From IMG/VR virus record IMGVR_UViG_3300005521_000001: a stretch of 64,000 nt of DNA. One strand, given 5' to 3'. Below are positions 5,073-39,080 of this stretch, in pieces. Source of the DNA: an uncultured virus (IMG/VR IMGVR_UViG_3300005521_000001). Its lineage: Duplodnaviria > Heunggongvirae > Uroviricota > Caudoviricetes. Positions within the stretch are counted from its first letter, which is position 1, and every line of letters starts with the position of its first letter. Made by a program: the position numbers and the translations under genes. Under the pieces are notes generated by a model. That model made no database searches and had not been told where the DNA came from. It saw only the letters and a program-made list of their open reading frames with translations.

Positions 5073-5714
5073 TTATTCATAAAAGTGTGTATTATCATCT
5101 TTATTGAGTATTTTGTCCTTTATCCTATTACCTAATTTGTATCTGGTGTTTTCTCCTTTTGGATATGGTTCGACTGTGTAGTTCATGGCCTTCAATAATT
5201 TCTTCCTACTCTTCCCTGTGCAAAATACATACCTATGCTTTGAAGTTCTAACCTTTCTAAGGTGATTCATTGAATTGTCATAATGCCTTGAATGCTTATT
5301 CTTCCCTGTGTATTTCTCTGTCCTCTGTTTAGTCTTGCCTGTGTATATCCAATTTGTCGCTTGGTATATGTAGCCCTTGTGTCCTTTTCCATCGTCAGCG
5401 TAAGAAACGATTAACAAGTCCTCTTTCTTAAGTCGCTTCAAACACCGTGAAACAAACCTGCTCAATGTGTTTTTAGGTAGTCCATCATTAACTATCAGTC
5501 TGTTTAATTCATAGACCATGTGGGAGTATTCGTGACCGCATATTCCATAACATAGGTTATTACTAACTGGTTTTCCAAAAGTGCAAACTCCTACCATTTC
5601 ACTATCTCTAAAAAGACCAAACGCATAAGTTATCATTGGCATTCTTTGAGCATAATGTTTGTTAAGAATAAAATCCTTAGTGTCTTGGTATTCTATTCTT
5701 CTAACTTGAAACAT
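5073..5714 (-). CDS. Mom-like (GNAT fold) DNA adenine-modification enzyme
   Basis: FILNKHY, VGVCTFG, YELNRL, IVSYAD..GHKGYIYQATNWIYTG motifs as in Mom-family proteins. SD-like GAAGTGA precedes ATG 5714. Confidence 0.7.
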   Translation of the reverse strand: MFQVRRIEYQDTKDFILNKHYAQRMPMITYAFGLFRDSEMVGVCTFGKPVSNNLCYGICGHEYSHMVYELNRLIVNDGLPKNTLSRFVSRCLKRLKKEDLLIVSYADDGKGHKGYIYQATNWIYTGKTKQRTEKYTGKNKHSRHYDNSMNHLRKVRTSKHRYVFCTGKSRKKLLKAMNYTVEPYPKGENTRYKLGNRIKDKILNKDDNTHFYE

Positions 5715-5718
5715 GATT

Positions 5719-6510
5719 TCACTTCGCATTGAATATGTCGTAAATTCTTTCAGCAGTTTTTTCTCCAATTCCGTCTATCTTTTGTAAGTCCTCAACGCTT
5801 GCATCGGATAATTCTTTCAAAGAAGGGTAGTGACTAATTATAATCCTTCTCAATTTCCTTCCAATCTTCGGTAGGGCTTCAACAATAGCATTCCTGTATT
5901 CCTGTGGCTTAGGTGACTTAGGGCGTGGAACATACAGTCTGGCGTGGTCGTCATCAATCTTATCCATAATTTTGCGAACTATGATAGATGCATCGTATTT
6001 ATCACCAATGAAAATAGGTGGGTAGCCAACTGCACATAGACTGGCTATGAAACCCGTCAGGACTTGTTCACTAACTCCCCTGTGTATCACTTCTTCCTTG
6101 ATTTCATTGTATGACTTAGTGACAATTAGGTATGAATACTCCGCTTCTTCTCGCATAGCCCCCAATTGCCGTAGTCGCCTGTCATCGAATAGGCTATCCA
6201 TAAAATCATCTTCCTTTCTTTCAACGCTGACTTTCATTCCCGTCAAGTCACCTTCACCAGTTTTTAGATGTGCTACTTCAAATCCCAACTGGCTGAAATA
6301 TGCAACCATCAATGGGTGTTCTCTGTGGTCTATCTTTCTATGTCGGCTCAACATTTCTAACAAAATACTTTCTCCAACAACCCCACGCATCACATTATCT
6401 TCACTCATGGCTCTAAGTAAGCCTAATTTATTCCCCAAAGTGCCTTTCTCTAATAGGTCAGTCACCTTTGCGGGGTCATCCTTAATCAAGTCCATTCTCT
6501 TTATTCTCAT
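5719..6510 (-). CDS. ERCC4/XPF-family structure-specific endonuclease with C-terminal HhH motifs
   Basis: GD..VERK..DF..SL.D.R..RQ catalytic motif and two HhH motifs (LPKIG, IDGIGEKTA). Confidence 0.9.
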   Translation of the reverse strand: MRIKRMDLIKDDPAKVTDLLEKGTLGNKLGLLRAMSEDNVMRGVVGESILLEMLSRHRKIDHREHPLMVAYFSQLGFEVAHLKTGEGDLTGMKVSVERKEDDFMDSLFDDRRLRQLGAMREEAEYSYLIVTKSYNEIKEEVIHRGVSEQVLTGFIASLCAVGYPPIFIGDKYDASIIVRKIMDKIDDDHARLYVPRPKSPKPQEYRNAIVEALPKIGRKLRRIIISHYPSLKELSDASVEDLQKIDGIGEKTAERIYDIFNAK

Positions 6511-17923: not shown

Positions 17924-17959
17924 ACCCTCTAACGGGTAGCCCACCTATTTTAAGGAATA

Positions 17960-18238
17960 GAAAGGGGGCTTTAGGACAGAAACCCCCTCATCTTCATGAG
18001 AGGCACGGGTCGCTAACCCCGTTCCAACAGACCGGTCAATATCCGACAGTCCTTTACCCTGTGAAGGGTGTTGCGTTTCTCCCCCCCTTGCCTCTTGGTG
18101 GCTCAAGTAAAGCCCCCTGCAAAGGATTGAGAAGCGACACCGGAACAATCACAACCTCACGCCCCTACTATGGCAATACCGCTTCCGGTTGCTTCAAGGA
18201 TTGATTTTGGTCATCGGGTGTTCCGTGTTGTCGCCTCT
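17960..18238 (-). ncRNA. candidate structured ncRNA A (about 280 nt)
   Basis: Has its own class I promoter (18257) with no ATG. Stems include 18229-18238/18130-18139 (10 bp starting at +1) and 18108-18118/17963-17973 (11 bp, perfect). Confidence 0.65.
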
Positions 18239-18256
18239 GTTCTATCGTAGGGGCAA

Positions 18257-18280
18257 CCCCTATATAAACCTGTCGCCTAT
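18257..18280 (-). promoter_or_regulatory. class I promoter driving ncRNA A
   Basis: Minus strand ATAGGCGACAGG-TTTATATAGGGG, with the same flanks as the promoters at 30399 and 51601. Confidence 0.75.
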
Positions 18281-24542: not shown

Positions 24543-24594
24543 ATCTGTCAAGGTGAATACCCACCATTATGAATTAATCCTTCAAACCACTCTC

Positions 24595-24690
24595 TTTAGT
24601 TTATACATATATGTTATCTGTTATGTGTGTGTGTTAGTATGTGTTGTAGTATGAATAATTAGGATAACCCCCTAAAGGGGGTTAAAGAAT
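24595..24690. other. candidate replication origin (low-complexity AT/TG tract plus a 9-bp inverted repeat)
   Basis: TATGTG/TAGTATG repeats at 24600-24655 and TAACCCCCT-AA-AGGGGGTTA at 24665-24684, upstream of the helicase. Confidence 0.35.
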
Positions 24691-24787
24691 CAGACAATTG
24701 CAGGGTTTGAACCGTTAAGGTCTTTCAAAACTATATGCAAGAAAAACACTTGGCGACAAAAACACCAATTAATTGTAATCATTAATT

Positions 24788-25076
24788 GAAAAAGTGTAAG
24801 GGGGCAAATTGCCTAATCGGGTATGCCCCCCTACGGGGCGAAGGCCGTTAAGGTAGGTCAGTCTGCAAGCCAGTTTAGTGATGCAACAACTGCGCCATTC
24901 TTGGTCAAGCAAATTCAATTGGCGGCCAACCCTTCGTTTGCTTACCTACCCATGCTATGTCATATCCCGCCCTGCTCGGCATCACCCGTTAGGTCAGTAT
25001 GGCTTTCAAGTCTTGCACGGCCACCCAAACTTATACCAGTCCGAGTGTTCTTCGGTGGGGGGTTTGACTCCCCTAC
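24788..25076 (-). ncRNA. candidate structured, pseudoknotted ncRNA B (about 285 nt)
   Basis: Class I promoter at 25095 with no ATG. The predicted +1 G (25076) opens an imperfect terminal stem with 24796-24808, followed by UUUUU. Several nested helices and one crossing helix. Confidence 0.65.
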
Positions 25077-25094
25077 AAACTACCCTATCAGTCG

Positions 25095-25118
25095 CCCCTA
25101 TATAAAGGTGTCGCCTAT
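25095..25118 (-). promoter_or_regulatory. class I promoter driving ncRNA B
   Basis: Minus strand ATAGGCGACACC-TTTATATAGGGG. Confidence 0.75.
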
Positions 25119-28337: not shown

Positions 28338-30095
28338 CTATTTTATTTGGCGTTTTAGCCAATTTGGGCATTCTTGTATATTGCCTCTAAACCAAGATGG
28401 TAATATCTGTCCATTATTGCGAGCAAAGCGTTGCCACCCACCGTCTAAGATAAATAAATCCCCTACATCATCAGGAGTCCTAACTACTCGCCCTGCGCCT
28501 TGAACAATGGATAGAGCGGTCTGTAATTGATACCACTTTTGACAAGGGGCATCACAAGTAAAACCTGCACCGCATAAATCACCACTATACTTACTCGGAG
28601 GCTGATACGGACATGACGGAGTATCTTCATGTTGTTTTCTCCACGACAGTTCATCTTGCATCATCCTCTCGGCAATAACTGCATCATTGGTAGGCAGGTA
28701 TGGAACTTTACATATTACAAGCCACTCCGCCAGTTTTCCTTTGAAGTCAAAGCCTTGAGACACATAGGTTGATATTAGAACTAAATCATCTTTGTCGTTA
28801 GTAAAAAATTCTTCTAACGCTGATTCTCTTGCTCTCGCATTTCCATCATGTGTTATAATCCTATCACCATGACCTCGCTCTGTCAATCCCTTGACTAACT
28901 CCTTTCTTATCGCATGGCTATGGGGAAGAATAACACCCCTCTTATGAGGAAATTTATTCATGATAGCATCTATTGCATTCACCTGTCTTGGTAAAGTGTG
29001 TTTTCTCTTAGCCCATGACATTGAACCACATGGGGCATAATACACATTGAAATTTTCTGGTGGAAATGGAGACTTTGTGATATTGATATACAGAGTTTTT
29101 TGAGAATCTAAACCCAAACCATGTAAGAAAGTGTCAATATCAAGTATTGTTGCCGATAAAAATATCCTTTTTCTCGCCACCATTTCTAAAATCTCTGACG
29201 CATAATCTCTAACCCTAATTGGTTTTAAACAAAGATAAGTTCCATACTTTGAGTTATCGAATGAAATATGCACATTGTTTGGTTTCAATAAAATATCAAA
29301 GGCAGTTTCAATTTTAGAAACTGCATCCCTTATCTTTTCGACCTCTTTCTCATTTACTGATAAGCCCAATTCATCTTCCGCTCCACTCAATACTTTTCGT
29401 GCCACTTTAATTCTATCAGTTATCTCAACCTTCCAGTCTTGGGGAGTGAAATGTGAAGGAAATTTTTCATTTGCACCAAATATCCTATGCCACTCTTTCT
29501 CCGATAATCGAACTTCCAGTAAATCATTCATGAAACTCTCCATATCATGCGCTTCATCAATAATAGCAAAATCCCGTTGGTCGAATTTTGTTCTTCCTTT
29601 TACTGCTCTAAACATATACGCAGGGTTGCTAAGAGTCAGGCGTGCATCCTCTGCCGCCCACCTTTGTTCGTAGTAAGGGCATGGTTCTTCCACATCACGC
29701 TTTGCATGGCGACATGAACCCGCTTTAGTCCAACAAGGGGCTGATTTAGCCGTTCCTGTTCGCACCCAACAAGGGAAATTATCTCTTCCTCTAACTTCTT
29801 CCAGTTTATGCCCGTAGTCGGCTTTGTATTGGTCTATTAGACCAAGTGAAGGAGTCATTAGATATGCTGATTGAAACTGATTCTGTATTGTCATGGCTAT
29901 GGCTGATTTGCCAATGCCCGTAGGGGCTTGAAGAACAATGTTATCAAAATCGTCGTTTTGTAAAGCCCAATACATTACGGAGAGGGCTTCGTTTTGATAT
30001 TTTCTTGGAGAGGGCATGGGGAAGTCAGGTTGTATCTCATCCCATTTATCAGGCAGTTTTGCCTTGCTTGGTATATTGATACGGACTACCGACAT
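28338..30095 (-). CDS. XPD/Rad3/DinG-family SF2 helicase
   Basis: Q motif PRKYQ, APTGIGKS, Fe-S cysteines (C..C..C..CPYY), DEAH, SAT, SQGFDF and QGAGRVVR. Confidence 0.92.
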   Translation of the reverse strand: MSVVRINIPSKAKLPDKWDEIQPDFPMPSPRKYQNEALSVMYWALQNDDFDNIVLQAPTGIGKSAIAMTIQNQFQSAYLMTPSLGLIDQYKADYGHKLEEVRGRDNFPCWVRTGTAKSAPCWTKAGSCRHAKRDVEEPCPYYEQRWAAEDARLTLSNPAYMFRAVKGRTKFDQRDFAIIDEAHDMESFMNDLLEVRLSEKEWHRIFGANEKFPSHFTPQDWKVEITDRIKVARKVLSGAEDELGLSVNEKEVEKIRDAVSKIETAFDILLKPNNVHISFDNSKYGTYLCLKPIRVRDYASEILEMVARKRIFLSATILDIDTFLHGLGLDSQKTLYINITKSPFPPENFNVYYAPCGSMSWAKRKHTLPRQVNAIDAIMNKFPHKRGVILPHSHAIRKELVKGLTERGHGDRIITHDGNARARESALEEFFTNDKDDLVLISTYVSQGFDFKGKLAEWLVICKVPYLPTNDAVIAERMMQDELSWRKQHEDTPSCPYQPPSKYSGDLCGAGFTCDAPCQKWYQLQTALSIVQGAGRVVRTPDDVGDLFILDGGWQRFARNNGQILPSWFRGNIQECPNWLKRQIK

Positions 30096-30120
30096 AATCT
30101 ATACTAAAATACCCACCTAT

Positions 30121-30366
30121 TTAATTTGTTAGTTTGTAGCATAGTCTTGCTACGACTCTATGGGTGCTTATTTTTCTTCCAGTTTCAGTAGTTATATTTG
30201 CATTTTCAATATCGGATTGAAGGTAAAGAACCTCTCTTAATTCTCTATCCGCATCCTCTGTTGCTACATCTTCCGCAGTAGTATTGATAATCCAATTTAA
30301 GTGGTCTTGCTTGTGTCCTACATATTCGTCGTATTCATATCTTACATCAACATCGTCTTGGTTCAT
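30121..30366 (-). CDS. hypothetical protein
   Basis: Promoter at 30399 and a short leader with GAGGGG before ATG 30366. Confidence 0.65.
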   Translation of the reverse strand: MNQDDVDVRYEYDEYVGHKQDHLNWIINTTAEDVATEDADRELREVLYLQSDIENANITTETGRKISTHRVVARLCYKLTN

Positions 30367-30424
30367 TTTTATTCCCCTCTGTTTAATCGTAGGGGTCACA
30401 CCTATATAAAGGTATCTTATATTG

Positions 30425-30739
30425 AAAGGTGCAGGGTGACTTACCTAAGTTTCAGTCGGGTTCACCCTGCGGGGTTTAATACTGATAGGCGCAATCATCC
30501 GACCCTGCCACCCTTCGGTGCTATCCTTTAACAAGTCGGGCTTCCGACAACATGGGCTTACTAACTGCCATGCGCCGAGTGAGGGAATTGGCTACCAACC
30601 ATTTCACCTACGCCATAGTTCTCTTCACTCCAACAACACCACGCCGGTGCGTCTGGCAACCCGCCTTGCGGCCAAGTAGGGATTTCTCCTACCTACGGGG
30701 AACTCTATCTTCTTCGGCGTCAGGTTGGTCGCCCGACAC
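30425..30739 (-). ncRNA. candidate structured ncRNA C (about 315 nt, GNRA tetraloops)
   Basis: Class I-like promoter at 30758 with no ATG. 5' stem 30731-30737/30535-30541, GAAA and GCAA tetraloop hairpins, and a 9-bp 3' stem 30462-30470/30431-30439. Confidence 0.65.
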
Positions 30740-30757
30740 AAATAGTCCTATCAGCCA

Positions 30758-30770
30758 CTACTATATAAAG
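30758..30770 (-). promoter_or_regulatory. class I-like promoter driving ncRNA C
   Basis: Minus strand CTTTATATAGTAG, the same variant as at 39706, which precedes a protein gene. Confidence 0.7.
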
Positions 30771-30863
30771 ATATTGTTAATATATTCAATTCTTTATAAA
30801 CTGTCGAAGGTTTTGATTTGATACCTTTGTTTCTTTTGGAGGTTATTGACCACGATAGCCCTA

Positions 30864-33800
30864 TCACGGCCAACCTGCAATTCCCTCACCTGTGTTGGTA
30901 TTCTCACCAATTGACATAGTTCCGCCTCCGGTGAAAGGATAATATAACTTATTTCCAAAGTGATGTGTTGAATACCATGATAACTCATTCGTAGTCCATC
31001 GTAAATCTATTTCGCCCGCATTATGGCCATGATGCCTTTGATAACGCAACTGTGGTGCGGTGTGTGTGAAGTCCTCATGCCCCGAACCTGTTTGAGCCGA
31101 TGAAGCCGGAGAGTAATTTTGACCATCGGCACTAACCATTGATGGAACAGACAACCAACGGACATTCACATCTCTTGCTACGATAGGAGAGGTTTGAGAT
31201 ATTTCACCCGATGGTATGAATACCTCCATAAAATGGCTTCTTTTCTCCGAATACATTGTATTTTTATTCGCCCCTCCATCCGGCCATGAAAGTGTTTGTT
31301 GCTCATAACCTTCTAATTGCGCTCTGGTGGGTGTTCCAGCCCATTGATAAGGCGGTGCGCCACCCGCCCTATGAGCGGAAGTAGCAAAGATTGGGTCGCC
31401 AATCATGATATTTGGAATAGTAAAACCAAGAACAATATGCAGTTCGTTTTTATCCGATATTGTTGAAGTCATGTGTTTATAGTTATACTTGTAGTCATTG
31501 ACCGAATTAAACAGTGCCATAAATTGTATTCCCGACCCTGCTACATAATTTAAAGACCAATCTTCCTTAGTTCTCCAAGATGTGATGAATGAATCACCAC
31601 TGTTATTTTCTATTATTGATGAAACATATGCTATATCATCACTGTCAATTACTGCGTCATAAAATGAAACCGCATCATATCCCATGTTTGCTCCAATAAT
31701 TAGTGTTTGATTTGCTACATCAAATGTGAATCGCCCCGATGGTGTTAGACCCTTAACCACTTTTCCAAGATTTGCATATACTGAATCGCTAACAAATTGT
31801 GGCCATGCGGTGGCGAAGTTAAACCCAGTTCCATAATTATAACTAACACCTTTAAAGAATACCACTGGTGTATCATCACCCTGTAAACACACCTTCGGTT
31901 TAGAGTTATCATATGTATGATGCCCCTTCTTCATGAGAAGCGTATTTGTGACTGTATCACCACTTGGCCTGTTAGATACAATTTGCCAAGTGCTTGAAAC
32001 CGTAAAACTACTACTATTGTGAACATAACCCGTTCCTGACGCCAATGTAGGCCATAATGTCTCCGTATTCAATTTTAAGGTGTATAAAATATGAGTTCCG
32101 GCGGGTATAGCAACATCATTATTTCTTTCAACCACTACACATGCCAAGTGCAACCTGTCTTTGGAGTCACAAACTAAACTTGGTTCTCTTAAATCCCAAT
32201 CGTTAGAACCACCGACCAAAACTGGCGTATGAACCGACCAATCCCAAGAATACACTAACTCCGGTTGGGTTGTGATTAAAGTTTTTGACGCATAAGTGTA
32301 ATACAAAACATGCTGACCGGATGGTAGTTTCACTTCAACAATCGCATGTATTGTTCCGTTGCTATCAGAAACAAATGCTGAACCTTGAGTGCTATAATCC
32401 GTTGGTGTAGCCCCTGCTATTATCTTCAAATGTGGTCCGACTTCATCTTTTCCATCGTGGACTTGATTATTAGTTTTAACTGCCTTCCTATTCCAAAATA
32501 AATCCGAATGAGCCGGTTTGGAATAATGAGTCCATACTGGTATATTGTCCGACCCTGTTAATCCGCTACGGTCTAAACTAAAAGTGTGAAGTGTTCCGTC
32601 TGGTGTTCTCAAAATACGCTGACCCATTCCTAAACCTGTAAGACCGGATGAAGTAAGAGAATTAATCGCCCCGACAGACGGACCTCCATCTTGAGAAGCC
32701 CTTTGTTTTGGTGTATAAGGTTGCATTGTTGTGTCGTCAAATCCACTTCCCCTTGCACTTACAATTCCTCCACTATCCCAAACTGGCCTTATTGAGTTAG
32801 ATAGGTGAACATCAACCGTTGATTGTAATTGTTCAGCAGTAGCAATGTAATCATGTTTGCTCATCCTATCCACTTGAGCGATTAATGCCGGAGAGTATTT
32901 CTCATTAGCAACATGCAATGCATCATAATCATTTCCTGTGTTAATCGGTATTGCACCTGCATGAAAATTCTCTGTTGGATGGTCCTTCCAAAATTCTGAA
33001 AATGTGGGTGCAAGAAGGTTCGCTCCACCACTGGCAATCGGTTTTCCTACTATTCTTTGTTGAGCGTTTAGTCTATGGTATTCTATTTCACCTTGAGACA
33101 TAGAAGTATCAATGTTCCAAAGGTTGGTTCTAAGATATGGTTGTGCTATGTATGGTGACATGACGCTTGTTCCACTCAAGCCCATTTGTTTTATTTTTCC
33201 AATCATCGGGTTATTTTCTAAATTATATCTATGTAAAGGTAAATGCAGTTCAAGGTCTAAACTATTTTTTGCCTTTGCTCTTGCCCTTACATTTACTTTC
33301 TCTGGTATTAGTAATTCCAATGGCATGTCATAACCGACACCTGCATTAACTTGCTTCCATAATCTATCAATTTTGTAAGGATGGTCTTTACTTATCATAC
33401 CATAATGAAGCGGTCCATGATGTGATACAACGCACATGCCTCCTTGATATTGATTTATATTACCACTCAATGAGTCTGTTATAGTATCGGCAACAAAATT
33501 ATTCCATAACCCCAAAGTCTGTGTTATTGTCACTGGCGGAGTTATACCAATTGAAGCGGGTTGGTCGGAGAAAAACTGTGAACCATCCGATGGTGTAGGG
33601 TCGTATAATCCGGTAGCAAAACTCCAACCCGCCCATCCGAGTTCTTGATATGGGTTTGCCGCTCCCCCATAATCAGCAAACCCTATCGTGGTTGTGTTGT
33701 AATGTGTTTGGAATAAATGATGCCAATTCAAAAGTAAATTTTCCCACTGACTGGATATATCCCATGTTTGGTATGTTTCTCCATTAGCCGGATTCATCAT

Positions 33801-36800
33801 TGAAAAATTAATAGTCGGTTGATAGAGTGGATAGCCACTAAATGGTCTTGTTAATTTAGCATCAACATACGCCATAAAATCAGCCGGTATGGGTTTATTT
33901 GAGAATAAGTTCGTCATTAGTGCAGGTATCAATGTATCATCTTCACGCCAAAGCATAAAATCTTCTAATTGTAAATGTGGTATTGATTTGGCAAAATTAG
34001 GAAAAGCCATTCGACACTCTGGATAAGAACCGTAAGTAATTGGTATTGCTTTTTGACCGCTCTCTTGAAACCAATATGATAATTGAGAACCCGACCACCA
34101 ACCAACATCTTTATTCCAATTTTGATAAACCAAACTTTTCTCTTTGGTAGCGTCAAAAACGGCAGGTTTTGAATCAAGTTCATATCTAAGTGTAGGCGAC
34201 CATGTTAAGGTTGTTGTTGTTTCTGTTAGTTCTTCGGGGTCATTTGTGAAAGTAAATGTTTTACTACCCTTAATTTCTCTTGCTTTTTTGTTATTAAATA
34301 ATAACACCAAACTGCGAGCCGATGTTCCACCAAGCATAGAAGTCCATGTTGGAACTGGTCCGAAGTTATCATATCCACCCAAGTATTGTAATCCACTATC
34401 TAAAATTGGAAGTGGCGGTCCTTTGCTTGTGTCTTCAAGTCCAAGAATCGGGTCAAAATGGGTTGTTAAGGTATCGGCGGGAATAGCAGGGTTTGTTCCT
34501 ATTATCGGTTTACATTGTCCATTATGATAATAATAACCCGCCGGACAACGCCCCTGTTGGGCTATATCAGGTTGTGGTGGATAGCCAATTATTGGAGAAG
34601 GATATTCGGTCTTCTCTGTTATGTAATCACGATGAATAGCCAATATCTTCATCCTTCCATCTTCCATTATTTGAAAATCACCTACATGGAAGGTCGGGTG
34701 AAGCATTGGGCTTTCAGCATCATTTAATGAGTGTCGTGGGTGCATCATGAAAGTTTTCAACTCGACTCCAAGATAGCGCATGGCTTCAATCTGTGGAAAT
34801 ACCCAATCATGAACTGACCAACAATCAGTGCCTTTATTCCTCATGCTCTCTGTTTGTGTAATAGGATAATTTGTGTTAGAGTGAAGTCCTTTTACTGAAT
34901 CAGCACCAAATAATTTTTCTAAATACCATTTATCTAAAATAGTGTCATGTTCTTTATTGGTATAGAACGGGTCAAGTGAAGGAGTGTATTTGAAAATTAA
35001 CATTTCTGGTCCATCTGGAACTTCAAGAGATTCTATTTTATTAACGGAACTTTCTTTCATTTGTCCTATTCCCCAAACTGTCGGGTTTAAATGAGCCATT
35101 TCTATAACATCAGTGGCGACAAATAACTCATCATTGAAAACATCAGCCGACCAATGGTGGCTAATTCCTCCTTGTTGGTAAAAGCCACCTGCCTCTATTG
35201 CCCCCGATAACAAAGGTATTTCAGCAAAGCCGGATGAAGCCAATGGCTTGAACGGTGTTAATTGAATTAAATTCCAATTTCTCGGCATAACACTTTTAGG
35301 ACATTCAACATCAAGTGGAGAACAAAGTTTTGCTGATTCGGTAGCATCCACATATATTCTTTCTAAGTCTGGATTAATTCTAAAAATTGCATGGTAAAGA
35401 TAACAACCTTCATCTTTCAAATTCAAATCAACATTAATTCGTGCCTCTGGATTATTTCTTTGGGTTGGTGTTCCTATTCTTTCGTTATTGTTATGACCTT
35501 CAATAGACAATCTTGCTCTTGGGGTTAGGCTGACTAACACATGGTAATCCACATTTGGTTTGTTGAATTTAAAAGTAGTAGTGGATGGATGACTACCACC
35601 TGCCTCAACATCAACCTGCTTATGATTTACCATAGCCGGTATCACTTGTATTTTAGTCGGTATCATATTTTTCATAAAATCCTGACTTGCACTTGTTGTT
35701 TTTTGATAATTTCCACCACTTAAAGAATTATTATCTCCTAAAATATAGCCAACGGGCAATACTGTATCTTCACCCGTATTTGTAGGAATAAGTATGTCAT
35801 CACCCAAAAATGGAACGGTTGAACCTGATATGTGTCGAGTGCATCTTCCAATTCTAAATTTGCTTGCATTGTCATTTCTTGCATCTTCCATGTTGTAATG
35901 TGTTGCACTTTGAAGAACATCTCTGTTGCCTGTTGTCATCATTACCTCACTTATTGGCTGAATATATTCTCCGTCAGTTCCATAGCGATAAATGCGGTCA
36001 GCATCAGTTCGATTATGATATGCAAGTCCATTTCTTCTAATAGCCAAGCCACTGTGAACTTGTATGTTAATACCTGCAAATGTGCCTTCATCAACCCCCG
36101 ACCATGTATTATTTACATTGTCAGGGTTGCCATCTTCCGACACCGACATAAAAGCAGTAGCAGTAAAAATTCCTTCATAACCCACTAATCCGCACGCATC
36201 AGTAAGTCCGATATTTCCCAAATCTGGTCTTCCGAGAGGTCGCCACCTTCTTTCACTTGAACTTAATACTGGATTTCCATTTGAACTAACAAAATCATTA
36301 GTTCCAATGTATTGTATTGTTTCGTTAAAAGGCATATCGGGAATTGGGTCAGCCGAATGAACGGCGTTTCCACCAAGCCCGTCAGGTTGTGATATTGTTT
36401 TGTAAGGAACAAGCGTAGCATCGGTATGTTGCCTAATAGGTTGATAGGATTGTAAGTTCAGTGACCAATGTTGGCTCATTGTGAATGAATCATCTCTTGC
36501 ACCTAACATTGGAGTTCCTAAAAAATCAGAAGCATTTATCACTGGTGCAGAGTTCAAAGATATGGCGTATTTCATATTATGATTATCACCATATGTAGCC
36601 CCCATACCATTGCTTGGTAGGCACATTTTAGTTTTATGAACCACTCCTGAACCAACATGAAGTGGACCATCTTGTGAAGCAGTATATCGCCCTGCATATA
36701 CATCATGTGCGGGCAATATCGTATCATTCCCACCCTGCAACACTTGTTCGTTATTTGTAATCGTGCTGAATCTATGCCAAGTGTGATTAGCAGGTCGCCC

Positions 36801-37307
36801 CCTACCACCAAGACCTGTTGTATATTGGTCGCCTTTGTCTGTGTTGTATCGCCCCGCCTTTGTATTAGTAAGAACAGTTCCAATTGGTTGAGTTCTATGT
36901 AAGGCAAACCTACCATTGACCGTGTGTAGCATCATTTGAGCATATTCCAAATCACCTGTTCCAAAATTCAACATTGGAGAACTTGTATTGACTGTTTGAC
37001 CCAAAGCCCATGTGTTTATTTCACTTGCTGAACCATCAATCCCTATCCATGAATATGATAGTGCATAACCATCAATTGTAGTGGGAGTTTGATTTCCCCA
37101 TCTTGTCACGGCTTTTGGTTTATCAACGGCATTTGCTAAATGGTCAGGCTTCCATTGTTCGTTATTCTCTTTCATAGGGTTGCCAGTTTTGCTTGCACTG
37201 GGATAACCGTCATTTGTAAGCGAGTCATCATCAGCCCAAACAAATGTTAAGGGAAGACCTGACCGTGTTCCGACTGGCGGTGTTAAATCAACATTTGTCA
37301 CGGCCAT
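30864..37307 (-). CDS. giant (2147 aa) putative virion protein with a beta-propeller-like C-terminal region
   Basis: Repeated blades (RTPDGTLH, SDSNGTIH, CDSKDRLH, IDSDDIAY, SDKNELH) and a class II promoter at 37329. Confidence 0.6.
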   Translation of the reverse strand: MAVTNVDLTPPVGTRSGLPLTFVWADDDSLTNDGYPSASKTGNPMKENNEQWKPDHLANAVDKPKAVTRWGNQTPTTIDGYALSYSWIGIDGSASEINTWALGQTVNTSSPMLNFGTGDLEYAQMMLHTVNGRFALHRTQPIGTVLTNTKAGRYNTDKGDQYTTGLGGRGRPANHTWHRFSTITNNEQVLQGGNDTILPAHDVYAGRYTASQDGPLHVGSGVVHKTKMCLPSNGMGATYGDNHNMKYAISLNSAPVINASDFLGTPMLGARDDSFTMSQHWSLNLQSYQPIRQHTDATLVPYKTISQPDGLGGNAVHSADPIPDMPFNETIQYIGTNDFVSSNGNPVLSSSERRWRPLGRPDLGNIGLTDACGLVGYEGIFTATAFMSVSEDGNPDNVNNTWSGVDEGTFAGINIQVHSGLAIRRNGLAYHNRTDADRIYRYGTDGEYIQPISEVMMTTGNRDVLQSATHYNMEDARNDNASKFRIGRCTRHISGSTVPFLGDDILIPTNTGEDTVLPVGYILGDNNSLSGGNYQKTTSASQDFMKNMIPTKIQVIPAMVNHKQVDVEAGGSHPSTTTFKFNKPNVDYHVLVSLTPRARLSIEGHNNNERIGTPTQRNNPEARINVDLNLKDEGCYLYHAIFRINPDLERIYVDATESAKLCSPLDVECPKSVMPRNWNLIQLTPFKPLASSGFAEIPLLSGAIEAGGFYQQGGISHHWSADVFNDELFVATDVIEMAHLNPTVWGIGQMKESSVNKIESLEVPDGPEMLIFKYTPSLDPFYTNKEHDTILDKWYLEKLFGADSVKGLHSNTNYPITQTESMRNKGTDCWSVHDWVFPQIEAMRYLGVELKTFMMHPRHSLNDAESPMLHPTFHVGDFQIMEDGRMKILAIHRDYITEKTEYPSPIIGYPPQPDIAQQGRCPAGYYYHNGQCKPIIGTNPAIPADTLTTHFDPILGLEDTSKGPPLPILDSGLQYLGGYDNFGPVPTWTSMLGGTSARSLVLLFNNKKAREIKGSKTFTFTNDPEELTETTTTLTWSPTLRYELDSKPAVFDATKEKSLVYQNWNKDVGWWSGSQLSYWFQESGQKAIPITYGSYPECRMAFPNFAKSIPHLQLEDFMLWREDDTLIPALMTNLFSNKPIPADFMAYVDAKLTRPFSGYPLYQPTINFSMMNPANGETYQTWDISSQWENLLLNWHHLFQTHYNTTTIGFADYGGAANPYQELGWAGWSFATGLYDPTPSDGSQFFSDQPASIGITPPVTITQTLGLWNNFVADTITDSLSGNINQYQGGMCVVSHHGPLHYGMISKDHPYKIDRLWKQVNAGVGYDMPLELLIPEKVNVRARAKAKNSLDLELHLPLHRYNLENNPMIGKIKQMGLSGTSVMSPYIAQPYLRTNLWNIDTSMSQGEIEYHRLNAQQRIVGKPIASGGANLLAPTFSEFWKDHPTENFHAGAIPINTGNDYDALHVANEKYSPALIAQVDRMSKHDYIATAEQLQSTVDVHLSNSIRPVWDSGGIVSARGSGFDDTTMQPYTPKQRASQDGGPSVGAINSLTSSGLTGLGMGQRILRTPDGTLHTFSLDRSGLTGSDNIPVWTHYSKPAHSDLFWNRKAVKTNNQVHDGKDEVGPHLKIIAGATPTDYSTQGSAFVSDSNGTIHAIVEVKLPSGQHVLYYTYASKTLITTQPELVYSWDWSVHTPVLVGGSNDWDLREPSLVCDSKDRLHLACVVVERNNDVAIPAGTHILYTLKLNTETLWPTLASGTGYVHNSSSFTVSSTWQIVSNRPSGDTVTNTLLMKKGHHTYDNSKPKVCLQGDDTPVVFFKGVSYNYGTGFNFATAWPQFVSDSVYANLGKVVKGLTPSGRFTFDVANQTLIIGANMGYDAVSFYDAVIDSDDIAYVSSIIENNSGDSFITSWRTKEDWSLNYVAGSGIQFMALFNSVNDYKYNYKHMTSTISDKNELHIVLGFTIPNIMIGDPIFATSAHRAGGAPPYQWAGTPTRAQLEGYEQQTLSWPDGGANKNTMYSEKRSHFMEVFIPSGEISQTSPIVARDVNVRWLSVPSMVSADGQNYSPASSAQTGSGHEDFTHTAPQLRYQRHHGHNAGEIDLRWTTNELSWYSTHHFGNKLYYPFTGGGTMSIGENTNTGEGIAGWP

Positions 37308-37338: not shown

Positions 37339-37773
37339 CTATTCGGTCATTTCTTTTTCTTTGTTTTTTCGCCATAATTTATATGATTTCCTTCTTGGTT
37401 TATCTTGATAGATAATTCCAGTATCGGCTTTTCTATAATATGTTGAAGGATTTCCATTTTCCCTCAATGCTTTTTGACACAATTCACAATAATGAATTGA
37501 ATCTTCGTTATGTGGCGGTATTCCTCTTATAGATTGTAAGCGTTTGACCATATTTTGAACCCTCTCATCTTTGTATTCCATAACGACACAACAAGGCTCA
37601 TCGTGGTATTCACACCTATGAATACAAACTTTTCCTGATAAATCCATTTCATCTTCCTTTAGTTCTCCTGTCAAAGGGTCATACTCATGGTCTAACTTAG
37701 CGTAGTGAGAACGGTCTTGTTTAACTTTCTTGGGCTTCTTTTCACCCTTTGGTTTGAATCTTTTTCTCGTCAT
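37339..37773 (-). CDS. basic Cys/His-rich hypothetical protein
   Basis: CIHRC..H..CC and H..H.CELC; coupled to the glycosyltransferase. Confidence 0.65.
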   Translation of the reverse strand: MTRKRFKPKGEKKPKKVKQDRSHYAKLDHEYDPLTGELKEDEMDLSGKVCIHRCEYHDEPCCVVMEYKDERVQNMVKRLQSIRGIPPHNEDSIHYCELCQKALRENGNPSTYYRKADTGIIYQDKPRRKSYKLWRKNKEKEMTE

Positions 37774-39044
37774 TGTTGAATCCCCGCATTATTACCATTG
37801 GGATGAGGTTTGGTTGATGCCGTCACCAATGCTTCTTCTAAACTTTCACACATCTCATCACCTTTCGTTTTTGTTCCTTTATGTTTCTTACTTGTCTCGG
37901 CAACATTTAACATAGTATCTTTCAATGAGTATTCATCAACCATGCCGTAAAGAATCTCATCTCTTCCTAAAACCTGTGTAGCAAGTGGAACTAATCTTAT
38001 TTCTTCATGCTTGGTTGATATGTTGGCATTTGGTGCAATAACTGGAAGACCACATGCCAATGCTTCTAATAATACATTTTCTTTACTAAAAGCACTACTG
38101 GCGGTGACAAAAGCATCAGCGATATTGTATAACTTATTAACATCAATAACCGATAACCCTTCCATCATGTTGCACGATTGGTCAGAAAAAGCGACATTTC
38201 TTGATAATCCCATTTGCTCAACCAATGATATGAGGTTAAATCCCCTACCATCGGTGTCTTGTGGGTTGCCCGAATGAATTATGAGTCCGTATTCTTTTCC
38301 TCCTTCTTCATAGACCAATTTTCTAAACGCTTCTAATAATCGTGGGTATTGTCTGTGATTCAAATTTCTTCCAATGCTCAAGAAAGTAAATTTCCAATCT
38401 GGTAATCCCATTGCATCTTTGACTTCCTGTATGTCAGTTTTCTTCATTTTACCAAAGCGTGTATCGGGTGTAAATGGAATTACCTGAACTGATTCACCCT
38501 CAATAGCGAATCTATCTAAAAATGGTGTTCTTTCTTCCTGTATGACCCCCGTTCCTTTGGAGTTATACTTCCATACCAAATCCATAAAACCTGTGTAAGC
38601 CGACTTAGTTTGAAAAACTGGTGTATGTATCATAGATAGTAGTTCAACCCATTTTCTTGATATTGGAAGTCCTCTATGTGATATGTAAGAAACTAATGGT
38701 AGTTTGAACTGGTTGCATGATTGAACCAACGGTGTCAAAGCCCAAATCGGCAAATCAGTATAAACAACATCTGGTTGAATCCTATTCAATTCCCTATCAA
38801 TGACATTAACCCCTTTTACCCCGTTTAACGGCGTTGCACCGAAGTTAGAGCCACCTGCGGTCATTATCCACCCTTCGGGGTGAAAGAAGTCCTCTCCTTG
38901 ATGATTAAAGGCCATTATGAAAACTTCATAACCTTTAGAGCATAGATGGCGGGCTAACCTTCTTGTTTGTAAAGCCGGAGAGGTTGTTAATAAAGGTGAT
39001 TCTGTTGCTAACAAAACCCTCATTGATGGTATAGCATCTGTCAT
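37770..39044 (-). CDS. GT-B fold glycosyltransferase (GT4-like)
   Basis: MRVLLATES, QPDVV, FLSIGRN, LYNIADAFV..ENVLLEALACGLPVIA. Start is 19 nt from the motif at 39063. Confidence 0.88.
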   Translation of the reverse strand: MTDAIPSMRVLLATESPLLTTSPALQTRRLARHLCSKGYEVFIMAFNHQGEDFFHPEGWIMTAGGSNFGATPLNGVKGVNVIDRELNRIQPDVVYTDLPIWALTPLVQSCNQFKLPLVSYISHRGLPISRKWVELLSMIHTPVFQTKSAYTGFMDLVWKYNSKGTGVIQEERTPFLDRFAIEGESVQVIPFTPDTRFGKMKKTDIQEVKDAMGLPDWKFTFLSIGRNLNHRQYPRLLEAFRKLVYEEGGKEYGLIIHSGNPQDTDGRGFNLISLVEQMGLSRNVAFSDQSCNMMEGLSVIDVNKLYNIADAFVTASSAFSKENVLLEALACGLPVIAPNANISTKHEEIRLVPLATQVLGRDEILYGMVDEYSLKDTMLNVAETSKKHKGTKTKGDEMCESLEEALVTASTKPHPNGNNAGIQQ

Positions 39045-39080
39045 ATTGGCGACTAATTCAGCCACCTATATAACAGTTAT

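Follow-up and report, generated by a model that had tools for sequence, protein, structure and literature searches.

What occupies the 464-nucleotide (nt) gap that separates a 2147-amino-acid (aa) open reading frame (ORF; 30864..37307) from a 92-aa ORF (30121..30399) and a helicase gene (28338..30095) in an uncultured tailed phage? The gap lies in a 64,000-nt stretch of the IMG/VR record IMGVR_UViG_3300005521_000001 (hereafter the window, to which all coordinates refer), and GC content is 0.48-0.56 over 30400-30774, as compared to 0.32-0.43 in the adjacent segments. An earlier note had assigned positions 30425..30739 to a non-coding RNA (ncRNA), ncRNA C, described as rich in GNRA tetraloops and ending in a pseudoknot or switch. 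Its call of a minus-strand ncRNA gene downstream of a promoter-like motif is upheld by our analysis, which does not support most of the proposed fold. We favour, with a probability of about 0.6, the interpretation that ncRNA C, ~340 nt in length, is structured and transcribed independently, from an accessory cassette of 359 bp in this marine tailed phage. It probably acts in trans. RNA positions are denoted p, with p = 30762 - window coordinate on the minus strand.

An optional cassette bounded by promoter-like motifs

The locus is framed by a motif that recurs throughout the window. Its 10-nt core, CTTTATATAG, is found in 18 copies within one mismatch, all on the minus strand, against an expectation of 5.64 +/- 2.52 copies for both strands together, and none of 100 shuffles reached 18. 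The core is part of a consensus of ~35 nt located just upstream of ORF starts. One copy precedes ncRNA C and is its presumed driver, and another lies between the RNA and the 92-aa ORF, where it serves this ORF and the helicase gene (Table 1). The consensus reads aATAGGCGAyAcCTTTATATAGGnGtGAcCCcTAcGATnnAAAC and often directly abuts the ATG, with no Shine-Dalgarno sequence (example sites 25107, 27284, 39446 and 55783). Its GGCGACAC..TATAG part may resemble SP6/K11-type promoters.

Helicase relatives were collected from IMG/VR at 24 loci, 17 of which retain at least 1.8 kb upstream of the helicase gene. Only one of these 17 carries ncRNA C, and it is the window's own record (L007, 100% identity). 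In four relatives whose helicases are 94-96% identical (L001, L003, L004 and L005), the promoter core is directly continued by the leader that belongs to the 92-aa ORF, without the 359 bp; the BLAST alignment with L004, for instance, joins query positions 3-125 directly to 466-501. The breakpoints of the insertion coincide with the duplicated motif. Since the element is present or absent among close relatives at a fixed junction, it is an optional cassette, with a copy of the promoter-like motif of this phage at either boundary. Recombination between the promoter copies would be the simplest route for its gain or loss.

The cassette may hold a complete transcription unit, with the enriched promoter-like motif at one end and, at the other, a 3′ hairpin followed by the U-rich tail ACCUUUC. 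We place the start of the RNA at G30761 from the pairing of p1-7 in two homologs described below (ncRNA B and the L027 copy) and of p2-6 in C, and its end would fall in the tail. A terminator scan did not flag this 3′ end because the hairpin loop exceeds the limit of the scan, and B, the L027 copy and the L029-type cassette end in CUUUUUCAAU-like tails. The span proposed earlier falls ~22 nt short at its 5′ boundary, as it leaves out the leader (p1-24), which is part of the fold.

Protein coding was assessed for the plus-strand ORF 30552..30821 (89 aa), whose conservation as a protein would, according to the earlier note, have spoken against an RNA gene. The ORF is not a conserved protein: it matched no PHROG family and had no homolog among protein clusters of 48-156 residues. 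It spans the boundary of the insertion that close relatives lack. Antisense ORFs of ~100 aa also exist in B and in the L027 copy, and the homologous frame shifts three times between these two, through all three frames, as a result of two 1-nt indels and other indels. BLASTP aligned the antisense ORFs of C and B with an E of 5e-4, at 28% identity and with 24% gaps, and part of the aligned region is promoter motif in translation. The possibility of a conserved micro-ORF that begins at AUGGC(G)CAGUU was rejected, as its peptide is changed by a 1-nt indel between B and L027.

The metatranscriptome check proposed in the earlier note retrieved two contigs, from two runs of one study, which match at 100% identity and lie wholly within the element: one of 238 nt on 30488-30723 (depth 5.6) and one of 152 nt on 30488-30639 (depth 3.9). 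They are low-depth, strandless assembly contigs that do not define transcript ends and that may stem from DNA carry-over, and we take them as a hint, not as proof, of expression. Neither contig reaches into the sequence flanking the element, an absence from which we draw nothing. Both end at 30488, within the 3′ strand of the clamp helix P0 described below, and their other ends differ; the shared stop, seen at low depth in the same study, may reflect either a break in the assembly or processing of the RNA. We conclude that ncRNA C is a real, non-coding, structured RNA gene that is probably expressed.

Homologs and comparative fold

The window holds three GC-rich, ORF-free units behind the motif, namely A (17945-18279), B (24552-25117) and C. 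ncRNA B is a distant paralog of C (nhmmer E 6.6e-4). A copy located at the B locus in a second phage contig (L027:2712-3033) links the two, with an E of 3e-75 to B and of 2.4e-9 to C over positions 3-375 of 376. The B and L027 copies are 93.5% identical over aligned columns, whereas the adjacent 611-aa ORF is 74.8% identical at the nucleotide level, and this difference points to purifying selection on the B RNA or to its recent transfer.

Further members were sought with sequence patterns and BLAST. The pattern GTAGGT..GGTTGGNNGCCAATT gave six matches in viral contigs, corresponding to the three known copies and three sites in coding sequence, and 37 in metagenome contigs, where only L222 (the same contig as L027) is related and the other 36 align nowhere beyond the pattern. 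The pattern GGTTGGNNGCCAATT..ATGG..CAGTT returned only the three known copies from viral contigs and four chance matches from 185,579 species, each represented by a single genome. When C was compared by BLAST with 1,202 genomes sampled from three bacterial classes, 11 of them gave only 25-55-nt matches at per-genome E values of 0.001-0.008, which is the level of chance, and three further genomes gave none. The pattern ACCCGAN{0,8}TTAGGYAANT was discarded as too loose after more than 118 matches. Of the 37 matches to the pattern ACCCGACNNAAACNTAGG, 16 fall on the final codons of a conserved but unrelated gene, 10 belong to contigs from this phage lineage and 11 lie in unrelated contexts. The first of these groups (L157, L158, L161, L163 and 12 more loci) is a phage gene family ending in ...KVIPD-stop, the last codons of which spell the 18-nt loop pattern, illustrating that a conserved coding tail can swamp a scan for a short RNA pattern.

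Searches for known families, which the earlier note had also proposed, were negative. Rfam 15, which includes GOLLD, ROOL, raiA, OLE, 6S, RNase P, riboswitches, ribozymes and group I/II introns, gave no match at gathering score in the 64-kb window and none at E up to 10 over 30000-31200. On the paralogs and seven related loci, it returned four chance-level matches only, to eukaryotic or unrelated families (E 0.17-2.6), and ARAGORN found no tRNA or tmRNA gene in the window. Our reading is that ncRNA C is a new orphan structured phage RNA that matches none of the catalogued RNA families.

Eight distinct RNAs of the phage lineage end in a hairpin with the near-invariant loop ACCCGAC-n-AAAC-w-UAGG-y, which takes a shorter form in B, and this hairpin is P7 in ncRNA C. 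A model built from the seven other sequences, leaving out C (R1), detects P7 of C at E 1.3e-6 as its sole extra match in 206,748 nt. The stem covaries: 94.1% of its cells are paired versus 76.4 +/- 2.7 in shuffles, a value that none of 500 shuffles reached, and the paired cells fall to 42-51% when the partner is slid. Both-sided changes occur in 7 of the 11 stem pairs, and the frequent U-G pairs fit the sense strand only. U's follow the hairpin in some of the RNAs, not in all. We read the P7 loop as a module that would be recognised in trans. The loop (ACCC-GAC-UgAAAC) also resembles the common mRNA leader ACCCCUACGAUUAAAC (e.g. 30396-30380) with a 4-nt gap. This likeness may be what is left of a duplication of promoter and leader, or the loop may imitate the leader.

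The pseudoknot that the earlier note drew between this loop and an upstream complement is not supported by the RNAs that have the same loop. C contains GUCGG(G) three times, whereas B, L027 and L015 have only the 5-mer CGGGU, and L017, L024, L181 and L185 lack any upstream complement of at least 5 nt. Nor does the duplicated GCAGGGU argue for a switch, as inspection places the duplicated G-rich strand in P6 in C and beside P1 in B, which are non-homologous places.

In folds of C, B and L027 that include the leader, the initial 15-25 nt of the RNA pair with the stretch immediately preceding the 3′ hairpin. This clamp helix, P0, is formed in C by UAGUG/UAUUA (P0a, ensemble probability 0.62) and CUGAUAGG/CCUAUCAG (P0b, 0.998), and in B by GGGGCGA/UCGCCCC and further pairs, with both-sided changes between C and B at p2, p3 and p5 as judged by inspection of the alignment. 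The leader is followed by a module shared by C, B, L027, L013 and L024: a P1 hairpin with the stems GUCGGG/CCUGAC (C), GGGG/CCCC (B and L027) or UUGGGG/CCCCGA (L013 and L024), then the invariant CCGAAG.A of the junction, then a P2 hairpin of variable length (CACCA-GAAA-UGGUG in L027, a 10-bp stem in B and 8-bp stems in L013 and L024). P1 is energetically disfavoured in C taken alone (probability 0.014).

The P4/P5 domain was delineated with a structural model built from B and L027 alone (R2), for which p104-196 of C is the best non-self match in the window, with a full-length alignment, 11.6 bits and an E of 0.062 in 2.8 kb; the sequence-only counterpart (R3) reaches 3.3 bits in a local match only. 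In this alignment, which is fitted to the model, 15 of the 28 pairs are unchanged in C, 1 has a one-sided and 7 have a two-sided change, 2 no longer pair and 3 have been deleted, meaning that 23 of the 25 pairs present form. Between B and L027, all five substitutions in predicted pairs keep pairing via G-U. The P6 domain (p205-260) is specific to C and has no counterpart in B or L027. A check by eye for CsrB-like GGA enrichment and for tetraloop-receptor, k-turn and sarcin-ricin motifs found nothing convincing.

All the complementary segments listed in the earlier note are present at the positions given there, on the minus strand (Table 1), and part of the fold built from them survives this comparison. 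The 9-bp 3′ stem has an unconstrained ensemble probability of 0.98 and covaries, the GAAA hairpin corresponds to P2, and CACC-GAAG-GGUG reaches 0.97, though it is found only in C. The proposed closure of the 5′ domain by GUCGGGC/GCCCGAC has a probability of 0.003, and homologs show the local P1 hairpin instead; CGCCGA/UCGGCG (0.013) and CAUGG/CCAUG (0.076) are likewise not supported, and GCC-GCAA-GGC stands at 0.019. The description as GNRA-tetraloop-rich does not hold, since GAAA and GCAA are the only GNRA loops (GAAG and AAGC are not) and one of the two competes with a helix supported by comparison. Covariation, which the note had named as a check, is found in the P7 stem; in P4/P5, both-sided changes are seen in the model-fitted alignment, the core being represented by three sequences.

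Table 1. Positions of ncRNA C, its structural elements, the surrounding motifs and the segments listed in the earlier note
Feature	Position	Strand	Details
ncRNA C	30425..30761	-	~337-344 nt; both ends inferred
U-rich tail ACCUUUC	30424..30430	-	possible termination point, read from sequence
P7, 3′ hairpin	30431..30470	-	9-bp stem GCAGGGUGA p292-300 / UCACCCUGC p323-331; 22-nt loop ACCCGACUGAAACUUAGGUAAG
P0 5′ strand (leader half of clamp helix)	30747..30760	-	p2-6 UAGUG and p8-15 CUGAUAGG; pairs with p273-285
P0 3′ strand	30477..30489	-	CCUAUCAG and UAUUA
P1 hairpin GUCGGG-CGACCAA-CCUGAC	30719..30737	-	homologous hairpin at the same place in B, L027, L013, L024
Conserved junction CCGAAGAA	30710..30717	-	C45-G50 and A52 invariant in C, B, L027, L013, L024
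P2 hairpin, GAAA loop	30676..30696	-	variable-length hairpin at the same place in homologs
P4/P5 domain (P4 UGCCA/UGGCA, P4a, P5, P5a)	30566..30658	-	structural model R2
P5a hairpin GGUUGG-UAG-CCAAUU	30586..30600	-	stem sequence invariant in C, B, L027
P6 three-hairpin domain (GCCC/GGGU closure, GUCGG-AAGC-CCGAC, CACC-GAAG-GGUG)	30502..30557	-	ensemble probabilities 0.89, 0.92, 0.97
Upstream promoter-like motif	30756..30785	-	core CTTTATATAG at 30770-30761, then TAGTG; presumed driver of ncRNA C
Downstream promoter-like motif	30397..30424	-	core 30411-30402; serves 92-aa ORF and helicase
Insertion, 359 bp	30397..30755	-	RNA body, 3′ hairpin, spacer, second promoter core; from alignment with L001, L003, L004, L005
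ncRNA B, paralog of C	24790..25098	-	nhmmer C to B
GUCGGGC/GCCCGAC (earlier note)	p25-31/p221-227	-
CGCCGA/UCGGCG (earlier note)	p43-48/p184-189	-
CAUGG/CCAUG (earlier note)	p190-194/p207-211	-
GUAGGA-GAAA-UCCCUAC (earlier note)	p70-86	-
GCC-GCAA-GGC (earlier note)	p90-99	-
CACC-GAAG-GGUG (earlier note)	p242-253	-
Loop CCCGAC and complement GUCGG (earlier note)	p302-307; p259-263	-	complement at 30503-30499
GCAGGGU, twice (earlier note)	p254-260; p292-298	-

Proposed mechanism and alternative explanations

In the mechanism that we propose for ncRNA C as an independent RNA, transcription would start at the G after the TATA and stop after the 3′ hairpin. The 5′ leader would pair with the segment just before this hairpin, clamping both ends and yielding a stable RNA, and the invariant unpaired or apical elements (the junction, the GGUUGG/CCAAUU hairpin and the 3′ loop) would be offered in trans to a protein or to another RNA. 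As the cassettes are optional and swapped between related phages, an accessory role is the most likely one: in host takeover or counter-defence, with the RNA as a decoy or scaffold, rather than a housekeeping or cis-regulatory function.

Several observations weigh against this interpretation. Fold stability is modest, and the folding z-scores do not distinguish the strands (sense -2.57, antisense -2.39 for the full unit; sense -1.47, antisense -2.76 over the span of the earlier note). R2 missed C with default filters and reaches only E 1.4 across the whole 64-kb window with filters off. In C, the fold derived by comparison lies 18 kcal/mol above the one of minimum free energy, which has a long hairpin at p22-114, and the ensemble probabilities of P1, P3, P4 and P4a are at most 0.014, so that the 5′ third of the fold is tentative. 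Across all collections searched, the family comprises C, B and the L027 copy only, so that covariation in the core comes from one deep comparison. No PF00940 (RNA_pol) gene was found among the scanned ORFs of the window or in five related records (36-69% complete); the control of the latter search also matched no genome, so that its negative carries no information. The 2147-aa ORF was considered as a polymerase candidate and rejected, as it has no family match and no DxDxD motif, and its G/T/S/N-rich composition looks structural. The limits of the metatranscriptome contigs given above count on the same side, and a trans-acting counter-defence role is one that we infer rather than observe.

The alternative that survives best, which we nevertheless consider improbable, is that the cassette is selfish or neutral DNA: a GC-rich fragment picked up when promoter copies recombined, or a priming or recombination signal acting at the DNA level, and functionless as RNA. 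It would explain the presence/absence polymorphism, the direct repeat of the promoter core on the flanks, a GC content foreign to the phage, the equal fold stability on both strands and the very small size of the family. It sits poorly with (i) the both-sided changes that keep helices in P7 and P5, (ii) the dependence of pairs on G-U, which equals A-C on the other strand, (iii) the B copy being far better conserved than its neighbour gene, and (iv) the recovery of element contigs from RNA libraries.

Ranking below it, and in our view unlikely, is a cis-acting leader (a riboswitch, attenuator or antiterminator) in which the RNA would sense a signal and thereby decide whether transcription continues beyond the 3′ hairpin to the 92-aa ORF and the helicase gene. 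Such a role would agree with the position of C upstream of the helicase operon on the same strand, with its terminal hairpin and weak U-run, and with the duplicated GCAGGGU, for which alternative pairing is possible. However, a full second copy of the promoter motif intervenes between the RNA and the 92-aa ORF, and relatives with helicases 94-96% identical lack the element entirely. Homologs precede unrelated genes: C lies upstream of the helicase operon, B upstream of an AT-rich spacer and an unrelated 667-aa ORF, and the L027 copy upstream of a small acidic ORF. The same 3′ hairpin closes other RNAs, and U's do not always come after it. The duplicated strand occupies a non-homologous place in B, we see no conserved terminator/antiterminator alternation, and no riboswitch family matched.

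We give still less credence to catalysis or self-processing by the RNA, such as self-cleavage at a site between its core and the 3′ hairpin. C has several helices with conserved unpaired junctions, and the two RNA-library contigs share an end at 30488, a base of the P0 3′ strand. Against this, no ribozyme family matched even at E up to 10, no conserved catalytic-core candidate was identified, and a shared end of two low-depth contigs from one study may be an assembly break. A small plus-strand protein gene is very improbable: the ORF exists, has ~100-aa antisense counterparts in B and L027 and resembles that of B by BLASTP, but this likeness is gapped, low in identity and partly made of translated promoter motif, the homologous frame shifts three times, neither a PHROG family nor a protein-cluster homolog was found, and the ORF crosses the insertion boundary.

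Our preferred reading, a structured RNA on an accessory cassette, can be set beside known systems. Promoter-early stem-loop cassettes of T4-type phages are an example of promoter-flanked mobile cassettes. Like phage morons, C is a unit running from a promoter to a terminator-like hairpin between conserved genes, is present or absent among close relatives, and is bounded by a repeated regulatory sequence usable for recombination; unlike them, its cargo is a structured RNA and not a protein, and the repeat is the lineage's own motif of ~30 nt. The phi29 pRNA is one of the stable phage RNAs with paired 5′ and 3′ ends. C shares with phi29 pRNA that it is phage-encoded, that its ends would form a closing helix and that conserved loops are left free for contacts; it differs in being optional, in having no link to packaging genes, in lacking sequence or model similarity and in matching no Rfam family. 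With riboswitches and attenuators, C has in common a long structured RNA, an end formed by a hairpin and U-run, and a position upstream of a same-strand operon, and it departs from them by the separate promoter downstream, its dispensability in close relatives, a paralog in another gene context and the absence of a family match.

GOLLD, ROOL, raiA and OLE are orphan large structured RNAs of bacteria and phages with families in Rfam. A literature search, which turned up bioRxiv 10.1101/2024.12.08.627333, returned general surveys only. C resembles these orphan RNAs in being GC-enriched, ORF-free, phage-borne, patchily distributed and composed of multiple helices with conserved loops. It differs from them in matching no covariance model, in its much smaller size (~340 nt), in its occurrence on two phage contigs only and in showing no evidence of multimers.

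Other RNA cassettes of the lineage

The RNA cassettes of the lineage comprise at least six or seven types. With others among them, ncRNA C has in common a 5′ module (leader, P1, CCGAAGAA and P2) and a 3′ module (the covarying stem and, above it, the conserved 22-nt loop). A larger RNA of ~250-400 nt (L013:3800-4214 and L024:2800-3045, both on the minus strand) has the same 5′ module as B and C (leader, P1, ACCGAAG.AC and P2) and a different core, the L024 RNA being a shortened version of the one in L013. Further unrelated RNAs, promoter-driven and ORF-poor, are found at L017:7281-7505, L024:3060-3305, L185:440-644, L015:4200-4475 and around position 6849 of L012/L022, and the first four of these end in the conserved-loop hairpin. 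In the window, ncRNA A (17945-18279, minus strand) has a GC content of 0.52, is ORF-free, lies behind the same motif and ends in GGGGG..CCCCC and a U-run. This RNA shows no sequence relationship to B or C, does not have the shared 3′ loop and matches no Rfam family.

At the B locus, L029 (4360-4580) and its relatives L028, L030 and L031 carry a different GC-rich cassette of ~210 nt with the same promoter and a similar CUUUUUCAAU end, which marks this locus as a hot spot for the swapping of RNA cassettes. Downstream of it, an AT-rich region (window 24552-24790, minus strand; L029:4580-4800; L027:3270-3420), which contains a CA-rich tract as well as a GGGGG/CCCCC hairpin, is kept between phages even where the preceding RNA cassette differs, and could be an origin-like or regulatory region.

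These cassettes suggest, tentatively and with a good deal of doubt on our part, that the lineage maintains a toolkit of modular RNAs, in which at least six or seven unrelated promoter-driven cores are in many cases capped by either of two interchangeable modules, the leader/P1/CCGAAGAA/P2 head or the covarying hairpin with the invariant ACCCGAC..AAAC.UAGG loop. The shared modules would dock a single phage or host factor, and the cores would be exchangeable 'warheads' serving as decoys or scaffolds against host defences. If so, the toolkit would be the RNA counterpart of the protein anti-defence gene cassettes.

The window itself reads as the DNA of a tailed phage. Essentially all genes of the window are on the minus strand, and their products include tape-measure, portal, large terminase and head proteins, a family B DNA polymerase, a clamp loader, a helicase, an exonuclease and a Mom-family protein. 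The 2147-aa ORF upstream of ncRNA C has no family match. The helicase has no cultured relative above 28.7% identity, and a DNA similarity search of 50,697 phage records gave no match. The sequencing runs that contain this stretch are marine; the whole stretch is present in three DNA runs, which may be its source. A Mom-family protein at 5073-5768 (minus strand, E 2.4e-41) and a group-1 glycosyltransferase at 37770-39065 (minus strand) together suggest that the phage modifies its own DNA.

Accessory cassettes of phages are usually read as protein genes, whereas the cargo is here a folded RNA with signs of selection, a paralog, modules shared with other RNAs and recovery from RNA libraries. As a compact new structured RNA of ~340 nt, ncRNA C would also offer a subject for structural study, and the swapping of cassettes between promoter copies hints at a route by which such RNAs pass from phage to phage. 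Should they act in trans on factors of the host or the phage, RNA would form a further layer of the conflict between phages and their hosts in the ocean.

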